IMG/VR virus record: IMGVR_UViG_2671180460_000010
Location: 1-19,577 of that record
Direction: 5' to 3' (one strand)
From: a virus
Lineage: Duplodnaviria > Heunggongvirae > Uroviricota > Caudoviricetes
Length of the DNA: 19,577 nucleotides
The position numbers were made by a program, and so were the translations under genes. Shown here in pieces: positions 13,034-17,319 of the stretch. The notes under the pieces are model-generated. The model was not told the origin of the DNA, searched no databases, and was given only the letters and a program-made list of their open reading frames with translations. Within the stretch, counting starts at the first letter, position 1. Each line of letters opens with the position of its first letter.

Positions 13034-13617
13034 TGATTAATCGAACCAAACTGGAACACATTCTCGAATATGCCAGGCAGCAGAAATGTATTGGGCAACT
13101 TTGTAAAATTCCACCAGGAGATATGGTTGAAATCGTGGAAATGGCCATGCGTAAGGCTGGCAACTCTCCGGTAACTCCGGCTCGCCTGCCTGGCGGTTTC
13201 ACCATTGAGGATGCGAAGGAGTTACATGAAGACCTGGTACGCAGCCACATAAGCCAGGCTTTAAGTTGTGAGAGGATGAAAAAGAACGATCGCGATGCTG
13301 ATTTGCGCTGGATTCATGGCGTTATAGTTCAGGCCGCGTGGTTTGTAAAAGCGTCACTGGAGCAGAATGCGCTAACGGGCAACTCTCCGGTAACACCGGC
13401 TGACTGGATAAGCTGTAGTGAGCGAATGCCTGAAAAGAACCAGAACGTGCTTATTTCGGTGAATTTCGATAGCTCTCTGGTTGAACCGCTAATATGCTCC
13501 GCACGCTATACAGGAAGCACATTCCGGCGAGGAGAAGCAACGATTAAGCCGGGTAATGGTATTGAGCAGGCAACTCACTGGATGCCGCTACCGGAGCCAC
13601 CGCAGGAGGTGAACTGA
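13033..13617 (+). CDS. DUF551-like phage protein with internal GNSPVTPA repeat
   Basis: C-terminal HWMPLPEPP motif characteristic of DUF551. A 24-nt near-exact direct repeat within the gene encodes GNSPVTPA twice. Confidence 0.65.
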   Translation: MINRTKLEHILEYARQQKCIGQLCKIPPGDMVEIVEMAMRKAGNSPVTPARLPGGFTIEDAKELHEDLVRSHISQALSCERMKKNDRDADLRWIHGVIVQAAWFVKASLEQNALTGNSPVTPADWISCSERMPEKNQNVLISVNFDSSLVEPLICSARYTGSTFRRGEATIKPGNGIEQATHWMPLPEPPQEVN

Positions 13618-14012
13618 TGAAAAATGAAGTCGACAATGTTATCACCCTTGTACAGCCAAAATCAGAGGAGGAAGGACTCCTCAACGTTGTGATAACCGAC
13701 AGAAAAAGCGTCGAGCAAAAATGCTGTCAGCATTTCCGTACAACAATTTCAGAAGTGAATCGTACGATTACCTGCAAACGGTGTGGATTGGCTTTAGATC
13801 CGTTTGAACTTGTTCTCGACCGTGCGAGAAACGGTGAAAACATCGTGTCAGAGATTAAATCACTCTATACAAAGCGGGATGCTCTTCGTGAAGCTGTGGC
13901 AAAACTTGAACGTGAAGAGAAAAACGCCAAAGCGCGGTTACGAGCAGTCAGGACAGCAATACTGTATGCGGAAAATGACCTTAAAAATATTGAGCAGGAG
14001 GTGAATCGATGA
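13617..14012 (+). CDS. Hypothetical protein with Cys-rich N-terminal half and coiled-coil-like C-terminus (131 aa)
   Basis: ORF with ATGA overlap to the upstream gene. KCCQHF...TCKRCG motif; Lys/Glu/Arg-rich C-terminal helix. Confidence 0.55.
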   Translation: MKNEVDNVITLVQPKSEEEGLLNVVITDRKSVEQKCCQHFRTTISEVNRTITCKRCGLALDPFELVLDRARNGENIVSEIKSLYTKRDALREAVAKLEREEKNAKARLRAVRTAILYAENDLKNIEQEVNR

Positions 14013-14092: not shown

Positions 14093-14122
14093 AAAACCCC
14101 GGATTGACGGTCCGGGGTTTTT
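14093..14122 (+). terminator. Rho-independent terminator ending the nin-like operon
   Basis: CCCCGGA-ttgacgg-TCCGGGG stem-loop followed by TTTTT. Confidence 0.7.
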
Positions 14123-14344
14123 GAAGGAAACAAACAGAAACAACAATTGCCGTTATCTGTTGCCACCAATGACAAGTAAACGTATCTCAGGCGAGCGCAT
14201 TGCGCCGTTCTGACGCGGATACATTAGCCTGGGCAGAAGGTTCTGGCAATAAAAAATAGCGTTTTCTTATCGGTGTCGGTAAGATTGTTGCGGGTGCTTG
14301 AGGCTGTCTGCCTCGGGCATGCCACTGTAAGGCAGACAGAGAAA

Positions 14345-14447
14345 AGCCCCAGTTAACATCACGCGTCCTGCAAGACGCTTAACATTAATCTGAGGCTCAA
14401 TCCATGCTGAACACATGTAGGTTAGCCTCTTACGTGCCGAAAGGCAA
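14345..14447 (-). ncRNA. Putative Sok-like antisense RNA and its promoter (type I antitoxin)
   Basis: Minus-strand promoter: -35 TTGCCT (plus coords 14442..14447), 17-nt spacer, -10 TAACCT (14419..14424). The architecture mirrors the R1 sok promoter, which sits antisense to the hok leader. The 3' end is not defined. Confidence 0.35.
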
Positions 14448-14460
14448 GGAGAAGCAGGCT

Positions 14461-14616
14461 ATGAAGCAGCAAAAGGCGATGTTAATCGCCCTGATCGTCA
14501 TCTGTTTAACCGTCATAGTGACGGCACTGGTAACGAGGAAAGACCTCTGCGAGGTACGAATCCGAACCGGCCAGACGGAGGTCGCTGTCTTCACAGCTTA
14601 CGAATCTGAGGAGTAA
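14461..14616 (+). CDS. hok: Hok/Gef-family type I toxin (51 aa)
   Basis: MKQQKAMLIALIVICLTVIVTALVTRKDLCEVRIRTGQTEVAVFTAYESEE is a near-match to the Hok/Gef family (HokD/RelF-like). The leader GGTGCTTGAGGCTGTCTGCC...AAGGAGAAG parallels the hok mRNA fold-back elements. The in-frame upstream extension from 14404 may correspond to a mok-like translational coupling frame. Confidence 0.85.
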   Translation: MKQQKAMLIALIVICLTVIVTALVTRKDLCEVRIRTGQTEVAVFTAYESEE

Positions 14617-14687
14617 GAGACCTGGCGGGGGGATTTTTATCCCCCGCCACCTCTGATGTGTCAGGCATCCTCAACGCACCCGCACTT

Positions 14688-14710
14688 AACCCGCTTCGGC
14701 GGGTTTTTTC
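14688..14710 (+). terminator. Rho-independent terminator at the 3' end of the hok transcript
   Basis: CCCGC-ttcg-GCGGG followed by TTTTTT. A GGCGGGGGGA/TCCCCCGCC hairpin precedes it at 14624..14648. Confidence 0.7.
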
Positions 14711-14746
14711 ACGTACTGTGGTTGTGAATACGATTGGTATTAGGCT

Positions 14747-14827: not shown

Positions 14828-15007
14828 ATGAGCTACGCACTAAAAAAACACCCGCGATTGACTATTCCCCCTCGCGATAAAAGCGTTGTGGCAGATCCGC
14901 GCCCGGCTATCGATGAAAATTGTACTCATCGTGAGCAGGTGAAAAATGCTTTCGATTTCGGTTTTTCTCGTTACGAGAAGGCAATGGAAGATCTTTCAAA
15001 AGTGTAA
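14828..15007 (+). CDS. Small protein upstream of Doc-family toxin; putative cognate antitoxin (59 aa)
   Basis: Short ORF (below the ORF-track cutoff) with AAGGG RBS, ending 18 nt before the Doc-like gene. Typical antitoxin-toxin gene order. No family assignment possible from sequence alone. Confidence 0.45.
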   Translation: MSYALKKHPRLTIPPRDKSVVADPRPAIDENCTHREQVKNAFDFGFSRYEKAMEDLSKV

Positions 15008-15025
15008 TGATAGGTATTGTGCTCT

Positions 15026-15511
15026 ATGGCTGAGATTGTTGAAGGAGTGCACTACCTCTCGGTTGATGATCTTACTGAAATCAATCGCCTTTTAATTGAG
15101 CTTCAAACACCAGATGAACCTGTTGGTGTGCTGAGTGTTGATAATTTAAGTTCTTCTCAGTCTCGTCCCAGTATGGTTCGATGGTATGAGCAAACCAACG
15201 ACATGTTTGTACTGGCATCGGTATTGATTGAAAGTCTGATTCAGAATCATCCATTTGCCAATGCAAACAAGCGCACAGCAATGATGGCTGGTGCGGTTTT
15301 TTTATTGTTAAATGGATACGAATTAACCGCGCCAGGCGATGAAGTTGTGGAGATGGCTGAGGGGCTGGCCTGTAAAATTTATACACGAGAAGAGCTTGAA
15401 AATTGGTTGTGTTATTGGTCTCGTGCGTATGACAGTCGGGAATTATGTAAAACAGGCGCAACTATTGTTTTGTATGAAACGATCAAGCTTAAAATAGAAC
15501 AGCAAAACTAA
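15026..15511 (+). CDS. doc: Doc/Fic-family toxin (death-on-curing-like)
   Basis: Motif HPFANANKRTAMMAGAVFLLLNGY matches the Doc signature HxFx(D/N)ANKR. An alternative TTG start lies at 15017. Confidence 0.8.
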   Translation: MAEIVEGVHYLSVDDLTEINRLLIELQTPDEPVGVLSVDNLSSSQSRPSMVRWYEQTNDMFVLASVLIESLIQNHPFANANKRTAMMAGAVFLLLNGYELTAPGDEVVEMAEGLACKIYTREELENWLCYWSRAYDSRELCKTGATIVLYETIKLKIEQQN

Positions 15512-16947: not shown

Positions 16948-16959
16948 AAGAGGTTACTG

Positions 16960-17319
16960 ATGCGTATAGAGTTTGTTTTGCCTTACCCGCCGACGGTGAA
17001 CACTTACTGGCGACGTCGTGGCAGCACATATTTTATATCGGAAGCCGGTAAGCGTTATCGCCGTGATGTGGCACTTATTGTTCGCCAGCAGCGGCTGAAA
17101 TTAAACCTGTCCGGAAGGCTGGCGATAACGGTTATCGCAGAGCCGCCGGATAAACGCCGTCGTGACCTGGACAATATCCTGAAAGCACCGCTGGATGCGT
17201 TGACGCATGCGGGACTGCTTATCGACGACGAGCAGTTTGATGAAATCAATATTGCGCGCGGTCAGGTCGTTCCCGGTGGGCGGCTGGGCGTGAAGATTTA
17301 CAAAATTGAAAGTGAGTGA
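16960..17319 (+). CDS. rusA: Holliday junction resolvase RusA
   Basis: 119 aa with AGAGG RBS. Characteristic LPYPPTVNTYWRRRG and DKRRRDLDNILKAPLDAL motifs (catalytic Asp cluster). Confidence 0.85.
   Translation: MRIEFVLPYPPTVNTYWRRRGSTYFISEAGKRYRRDVALIVRQQRLKLNLSGRLAITVIAEPPDKRRRDLDNILKAPLDALTHAGLLIDDEQFDEINIARGQVVPGGRLGVKIYKIESE

Follow-up and report, generated by a model that had tools for sequence, protein, structure and literature searches.

The hok/mok/sok unit and its prophage setting

The window analyzed here, a 19,577-nt stretch of tailed-phage DNA taken at its full length, carries on its plus strand the complete hok mRNA unit of a hok/mok/sok module (14292–14709), with the sok antisense gene on the opposite strand (Table 1). 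The presence, integrity, and conservation of all of its sequence and structure elements are established. A complete hok/sok-like locus had been proposed here in the initial annotation, and every element named in that proposal was found at the position assigned to it.

Table 1. Features of the hok/mok/sok cassette, with window positions, strand, and basis of assignment
Feature	Position	Strand	Basis
Putative hok promoter -10, TAAGAT	14280–14285	+	Sequence; 6 nt 5' of the predicted +1
Full-length hok (mok-hok) mRNA, ~418 nt to terminator	14292–14709	+	Rfam position 1 at 14292, fold, homology
tac (translational activator), GGGUGCUUGAGG	14292–14303	+	Pairing, conserved motif
Segment pairing locally with tac in a predicted 5' hairpin (14294–14304 with 14310–14320)	14310–14320	+	Truncated-RNA MFE, p ~0.37
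ucb / mok anti-Shine-Dalgarno, AAGCCCCAG	14344–14352	+	Pairing with 14390–14397 (SDmok region)
mok Shine-Dalgarno (SDmok), GAGG	14392–14395	+	Sequence; 8 nt 5' of the mok ATG; within the Sok-complementary region
Sok-target hairpin, 7-nt loop CUGAACA with YUNR motif (CUGA, 14408–14411)	14399–14423	+	Rfam structure alignment
mok-like frame, 70 codons, in frame with hok (N-terminally extended Hok)	14404–14616	+	ORF list, MokC identity
hok Shine-Dalgarno (SDhok), AAGGAG	14446–14451	+	Sequence; overlaps the sok -35 of the other strand
hok toxin gene, 51 aa	14461–14616	+	Pfam HOK_GEF, HokD identity
G+C-rich 3' hairpin, 9 bp	14624–14648	+	Fold; helix 23 conserved with compensatory changes
fbi (fold-back inhibition), CCUCAACGCACCC	14669–14681	+	tac pairing, position, covariation
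Intrinsic terminator, AACCCGC-UUCG-GCGGGUU followed by a U run	14688–14709	+	Fold
sok promoter: -35 TTGCCT (14447–14442), 17-nt spacer, -10 TAACCT (14424–14419)	14419–14447	-	Unique motif, positional homology
Predicted Sok RNA, ~77 nt	14412 to 14336	-	Ends mapped from annotated K-12 sokC (16952–17010)

The 51-aa product matches Pfam PF01848 (HOK_GEF) over the entire profile (positions 1–42 of 42; E = 1.2e-23) and is identical to K-12 HokD at 50 of 51 residues (98%), with lower identities to HokW (94%), HokC (84%), and R1-type Hok (45%), in agreement with the Hok/Gef assignment that had been made from the sequence. The NCBIfam Hok models scored 51 bits against this ORF, under their curated cut-off of 73, and these sub-threshold matches were therefore left out of the membership assignment.

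The upstream frame from 14404, originally suggested as a mok-like coupling frame, is likewise supported: its 70-aa product is 77% identical to K-12 MokC, and both proteins start with MLNTCR. Since mokC and hokC have a common frame and stop codon in the K-12 annotation, an in-frame mok is normal for this branch, and by analogy the translation of hok would be coupled to that of the mok frame. A comparison of mok frame coordinates (window 14404–14460; locus L005, 416–628; locus L007, 1622–1828) showed that mok and hok share a frame in the window, hokC, and hokW, whereas in R1-type plasmids, Rac-442, and loci L018–L020 the mok frame is shifted by the indel of one T in AAAGG(T)CAAGG. This variability fits the view that the translation of mok matters, and not the Mok product.

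Homology with the hok cassettes of other phages and genomes starts at 14284–14295 and ends at 14681–14714, with unrelated flanks on either side; the unit thus behaves as a discrete insert of ~420 bp, close to the extent of 14290–14710 given in the initial annotation. The insert lies in the early (nin-like) lambdoid region, between the replication genes and Q, within the order integrase, RecE-like exonuclease, DnaC-like gene, DUF551, hok/sok, Doc-family toxin, DUF968, RusA, and Q-like antiterminator. Lambdoid genes flank hok/sok on both sides, and the layout of the window agrees with that of Rac/Qin-like E. coli prophages. The prophage setting proposed earlier is supported by the integrase, the RecE-like exonuclease, the DnaC-like gene, RusA, and the Q antiterminator. 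When the whole window was compared to complete E. coli genomes, the best matches reached at most 62% coverage at ~94% identity. The cassette itself is present in 4722 of 5426 complete E. coli genomes, at a median of 2 places per genome, and the RefSeq names for its best matches are hokD or “Hok/Gef family protein.”

Two features adjoin the cassette. Upstream, at 14100–14124 of the plus strand, a hairpin with its T run resembles a terminator (CGGATTGACGGTCCG GGGTTTTTGA); it lies ~90 nt past the upstream ORF (13617–14012) and ~170 nt before the hok +1, and may shield the cassette from read-through out of the early operon. Directly 3' of hok/sok lies a second toxin-antitoxin-like pair (14828–15511, plus strand), made up of a 59-aa ORF without a family match (14828–15007) and a Doc/Fic-family toxin (15017–15511; Pfam Fic, E = 1.7e-11; TIGR01550 DOC_P1, E = 4e-35). 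In E. coli AH19B041, too, hok is followed by this pair of 59-aa ORF and Doc/Fic toxin, an arrangement that echoes relBE beside hokD in the Qin prophage of K-12.

The sok antisense gene and folding of the hok mRNA

A generic sigma-70 and terminator scan called neither a hok nor a sok promoter and missed the terminator downstream of fbi, and the promoters and terminator were therefore assigned by positional homology and folding. The motif TTGCCT-17-TAACCT has a single match in the window, with 0 expected from 200 shuffles, and it is the positional homologue of the R1-type TTGCGC-17-TATCCT and of the hokC and hokW promoters. Its sequence is identical to that of the sokW promoter of Sakai prophage 5 (Sp5), whose -10 element has been validated by mutation (PMC8621323). 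The 112-nt sok region as a whole, with its promoter, 5' tail, and mok start, matches the Sp5 sokW region at 109 of 112 positions, and the predicted 5' end of the RNA corresponds to the annotated 5' end of sokC; both results support the minus-strand sok promoter that had been proposed at this place. The antisense RNA had been expected to measure roughly 65 nt, a figure that end mapping from sokC replaces with ~77 nt. The greater length is due to 19 nt inserted at the Sok hairpin's tip, an insertion found in the hokD/hokW group and absent from hokC and the R1-type loci; annotated sokC, lacking it, is 59 nt long.

In its fold (-34.1 kcal/mol, z = -5.0, compared to -21.6 kcal/mol for sokC), the predicted Sok RNA begins with a short single-stranded 5' tail, continues into a long hairpin, and ends in a GGGGCUUUUCU tail. 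Five nucleotides of the 5' tail are unpaired in the MFE fold, and 13 nt lie ahead of the main hairpin. The first nine nucleotides (GUUCAGCAU) are identical to those of sokC, and the RNA spans both SDmok and the mok AUG. It is conceivable, although in our judgment very unlikely, that the hokD/hokW insertion, which adds a G+C-rich apical stem (-34 versus -22 kcal/mol for sokC), together with the extended 70-aa Hok that the in-frame mok would give, alters the kinetics of the system relative to plasmid hok/sok; if so, firing might be tuned to prophage induction and not to loss of the element, through a Sok of longer lifetime and an additional Hok isoform.

On the sense strand, the 5' leader (14292–14466) matches Rfam RF01794 with 114.1 bits (gathering score 59; E = 1e-25). 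This model is named “sok antitoxin,” is 157 nt long, and describes the sense (hok-mRNA) strand, whereas annotated sokC is encoded on the opposite strand; because it is the sense strand that is matched, such a hit marks the locus, or the hok-mRNA leader overlapping sok, and not the antisense transcript. TAAGAT stands where hokC has TATAAT, hokW has TAGAAT, and the R1-type locus has TATGAT; no good -35 is seen upstream of it, and it may act as the -10 of a weak hok promoter.

The full-length hok RNA has a predicted MFE of -175.1 kcal/mol (z = -6.7 versus shuffles); its length would be ~391 nt if it ended just past fbi as in R1. In the full-length fold, tac and fbi form 12 base pairs with one bulged C (p 0.97–1.0), SDmok is paired with the anti-SD (p 0.88–1.0), and the mok AUG is paired as well. 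The fold-back elements that the initial annotation had suspected in the leader and 3' end are thereby recovered, with C-G/U-A covariation (see below), and the fold-back inhibition pairing of the leader is retained in the predicted full-length structure. The SDmok/anti-SD helix contains an A·C mismatch opposite the SD, as in R1 (PMC9841398).

A truncated RNA was modelled by cutting after the G+C-rich 3' hairpin, which leaves 359 nt. In silico, this truncation lowers the SDmok/anti-SD pairing to a probability of ~0.37, raises the pairing of tac with the anti-SD (14344–14350) from 0 to ~0.62, and increases the mean unpaired probability of the Sok-target loop (14408–14414) from 0.28 to 0.66. The tac/anti-SD pairing is dominant in the ensemble only, the MFE structure of the truncated RNA being the local tac hairpin. 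The YUNR sequence of the target loop is a U-turn motif whose role in R1 hok/sok was reportedly described by Franch et al. in 1999. Truncated hok mRNA of R1 is 361 nt long, and the G+C-rich 3' hairpin of the window copy is expected, by analogy with R1, to stop 3' exonucleolytic processing and so to yield an mRNA of ~360 nt. In R1, the truncated mRNA is protected by the corresponding hairpin, and a metastable hairpin of the nascent transcript has been described mechanistically (PMC9841398); the local tac hairpin of the window copy resembles the latter and may be its counterpart.

Several other placements were tried and set aside. An earlier truncation point at 14668 was the wrong end, as the R1 analogy puts the end just past the 3' hairpin, and forcing tac onto 14424–14429 costs 6.5 kcal/mol. 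The helix joining 14427–14433 to 14613–14619 was rejected as ucb/dcb, since ucb is the mok anti-SD (PMC9841398). This long-range helix (plus strand, CUCUUAC with GUAAGAG) connects the region of the sok-promoter spacer to the hok stop codon. As helix 12 of the alignment described below, it is 85% paired over 50 loci with U-A/U-G variation, and it is distinct from both the tac/fbi and the SD/anti-SD pairings.

Covariation across hok loci

Scanning one genome per species yielded 80 hok loci, and in most of them the tac motif lies as far from hok as expected. Among the 60 tac-bearing loci, the best tac complement (i.e., fbi) lies 45–57 nt past the stop codon in 50. For the covariation analysis, 50 distinct loci, pre-selected for having their tac-fbi duplex where it was expected (which left out 10 of the 60), were aligned and scored on the full-length structure of the window copy: 80% of cells were paired, compared to 37–44% in slid controls, with the pre-selection inflating the percent paired for the tac-fbi helix. 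Compensatory changes, with both sides altered, were found in 48 pairs versus 19–30 in the slid controls, and the covariation score was 0.184 versus at most 0.083. The sole variable tac position that pairs with fbi (columns 4/446) was C-G in 26 loci, U-A in 22, U-G in one, and unpaired in one, a compensatory pattern that is not created by the pre-selection. Both translation signals are well preserved in the same alignment, with the GAGG of SDmok and the CAAGGAG at the hok SD nearly invariant.

Near-identical enterobacterial hok loci also turned up on contigs labelled as a Veillonella parvula MAG, Acinetobacter idrijaensis, Xanthomonas pisi, Ferruginibacter, Streptomyces morookaense, and Oscillibacter (loci L008, L026, L034, and L068–L070). 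Of these oddly labelled contigs, most span only 275 bp to ~5 kb, with 22.9 kb for that of Veillonella, and the hok loci on them most likely reflect assembly contamination or mis-binning, not host range.

Characterized relatives and the probable role of the cassette

The type of locus is already known: hok/sok of plasmid R1 is a textbook system, and the prophage lineage has been characterized as hokW-sokW. The latter resides in Sakai prophage 5 (Stx2 phage VT2-Sakai) of E. coli O157:H7, likewise a lambdoid prophage, and belongs to the same lineage as the window copy, with 93.2% nucleotide identity over 14284–14691. An alignment to hok/sok and hokD loci had been proposed in the initial annotation, and this value, along with the near-identity of the toxin to HokD, is its outcome. 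The two loci share the in-frame 70-codon mok (“orf74, gef homolog” in hokW-sokW) and the 19-nt extension of the Sok hairpin; they differ by 7 substitutions in the hok CDS, by a 3' hairpin loop that is 4 nt longer in the window, and in their flanking genes. Past ~14691, the sequence diverges from that of Sp5, and the window has its own CCCGC-UUCG-GCGGG-U6 terminator. Experimentally, hokW-sokW is a functional toxin-antitoxin system of type I, which aids the release of Sp5: HokW is toxic, mutation of the sokW -10 unmasks this toxicity, and growth recovers in part when sokW is provided in trans (PMC8621323).

In K-12, a near-identical toxin is encoded by hokD (relF) of the cryptic prophage Qin, in which the 3' UTR hairpin, fbi, and the terminator are also conserved. 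K-12 hokD, however, is homologous to the window only from approximately the hok SD onward and abuts relE upstream of that point, so that tac, the anti-SD, the mok start, the Sok target, and the sok gene, all of which are found in the window, are missing from it. The window copy is not of this truncated, relBE-fused form without mok and sok, although it encodes the same toxin orthologue; as everything 5' of the SD is lost from K-12 hokD, the window copy is the intact, ancestral-type form of hokD. The hokC/mokC/sokC (gef) locus of K-12 has the same architecture, including the in-frame mok with its MLNTCR start, a tac identical to that of the window (GGGUGCUUGAGGC), and the identical Sok 5' end, but its fbi region has been removed by IS186, 20 nt past the stop codon.

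R1 hok/mok/sok (parB) and related IncF plasmids share with the window the order and spacing of tac, the anti-SD, SDmok, the mok ATG, the sok promoter, SDhok, hok, the 3' hairpin, and fbi. The R1 tac GGCGC and fbi GCGCC correspond to GGGUGC and GCACCC in the window, a compensatory pair, and the closed/open mRNA switch of R1 (PMC9841398) was reproduced in silico for the window copy. In contrast to the window, R1 has its mok in a frame other than that of hok, a larger first leader hairpin, and a shorter Sok hairpin. R1 is also plasmid-borne with a proven role in post-segregational killing, whereas the window copy is prophage-borne.

The closest full-length match in E. coli, at 95.9%, is that of strain AH19B041 (locus L001, 8001–8559), in which CAA has changed to TAA at hok codon 4. 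Because of this stop, RefSeq annotates a shortened 45-aa “Hok/Gef family protein,” and the AH19B041 copy is likely inactivated.

Such decay, together with the leader lost from K-12 hokD and the IS186 interruption of K-12 hokC, invites the reading that the window cassette is also a functionally silent, neutral hitch-hiker, intact in sequence yet neither killing nor stabilizing. Several chromosomal hok loci are reported to be silent, and intact chromosomal hokA, hokB, and hokC are reported to lack post-segregational killing, as cited in a preprint (bioRxiv 10.1101/2025.08.07.668861). The window copy itself, however, has no visible disabling change in its ORF, both SDs, tac, fbi, anti-SD, 3' hairpin, or sok promoter, and disruptive changes of this kind, which were named at the outset as evidence against an intact locus, are thus not seen in the hok mRNA elements. 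Moreover, hokW-sokW, with its 93% identity, shows toxicity that SokW represses and has an effect on phage release (PMC8621323). We judge silence to be quite improbable, and regard the cassette, with high confidence, as a structurally intact hok/mok/sok type I toxin-antitoxin module of the hokD/hokW lineage, carried by a lambdoid prophage and most likely operating the canonical switch that homology predicts.

By analogy with these relatives, the window copy would be transcribed, processed, and toxic, in the following manner. A weak promoter would produce a stable hok mRNA of ~390–418 nt, which would be held closed by the pairing of tac with fbi and of SDmok with ucb. Slow 3' trimming back to the G+C-rich hairpin would remove fbi, after which tac would pair with the anti-SD, exposing the mok SD and AUG as well as the Sok-target loop. 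For as long as the cassette is transcribed, an abundant but unstable Sok RNA of ~77 nt would pair over the mok start region, blocking the translation of mok, and hence the coupled translation of hok, and triggering cleavage by RNase III. Once sok ceases to be transcribed, because the prophage is induced, the element is lost, or transcription is shut off, Sok would decay, mok and hok would be translated, and the 51-aa Hok would damage the inner membrane.

Most likely, the role of the cassette parallels that of hokW-sokW, with Hok made upon induction and helping lysis and phage release, possibly in addition to prophage retention. It could also be supposed that retention by post-segregational killing is the main role of an active cassette, and not an aid to lysis: plasmid hok/sok classically acts in this way, hok is approximately four-fold enriched in prophages (bioRxiv 10.1101/2025.08.07.668861), and a second addiction-type module, with its Doc-family toxin, lies directly downstream. 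The sole experimental study of a near-identical prophage copy nevertheless found a lysis and release phenotype, not one of maintenance (PMC8621323), and we consider retention as the main role a tentative and rather unlikely possibility.

The shut-off of host transcription by an infecting phage would also deplete Sok and free Hok, so that the active cassette might instead serve as an abortive-infection or exclusion defence. Prophage accessory regions often harbor defence genes, and work cited in one article describes R1 hok/sok on a high-copy plasmid as lowering the plating efficiency of T4 by 42% and its plaque size by ~85% (PMC8621323). This effect on T4 is modest, however, and seen only at high copy number, and hok loci are not enriched beside defence systems (bioRxiv 10.1101/2025.08.07.668861); a defence role thus appears improbable, and an induction-linked role like that of hokW-sokW is preferred.

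The locus adds little new biology: thousands of E. coli genomes contain near-identical copies, whose annotation as hokD is routine. The annotation of the window copy should nonetheless cover the whole mRNA unit, including mok and the ~77-nt antisense sok gene that protein-only pipelines overlook. Unlike K-12 hokD, the window copy retains every regulatory element, and it could be used to represent the hokD lineage in intact form.

A further observation concerns the hok coding sequence, in which the Tyr47 codon UAC is followed by G (14599–14602, plus strand), forming the UACG motif of TadA A-to-I editing (Tyr to Cys). Recoding at this motif has been reported for hokB and is said to extend to hokC, hokD, and hokE (bioRxiv 10.1101/2025.08.07.668861). 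Folding predicted no strong local tRNA-Arg-like hairpin around the UACG codon, and TTACGAA or CTACGAA is present at the Tyr47 region in 48 of the 50 aligned loci.
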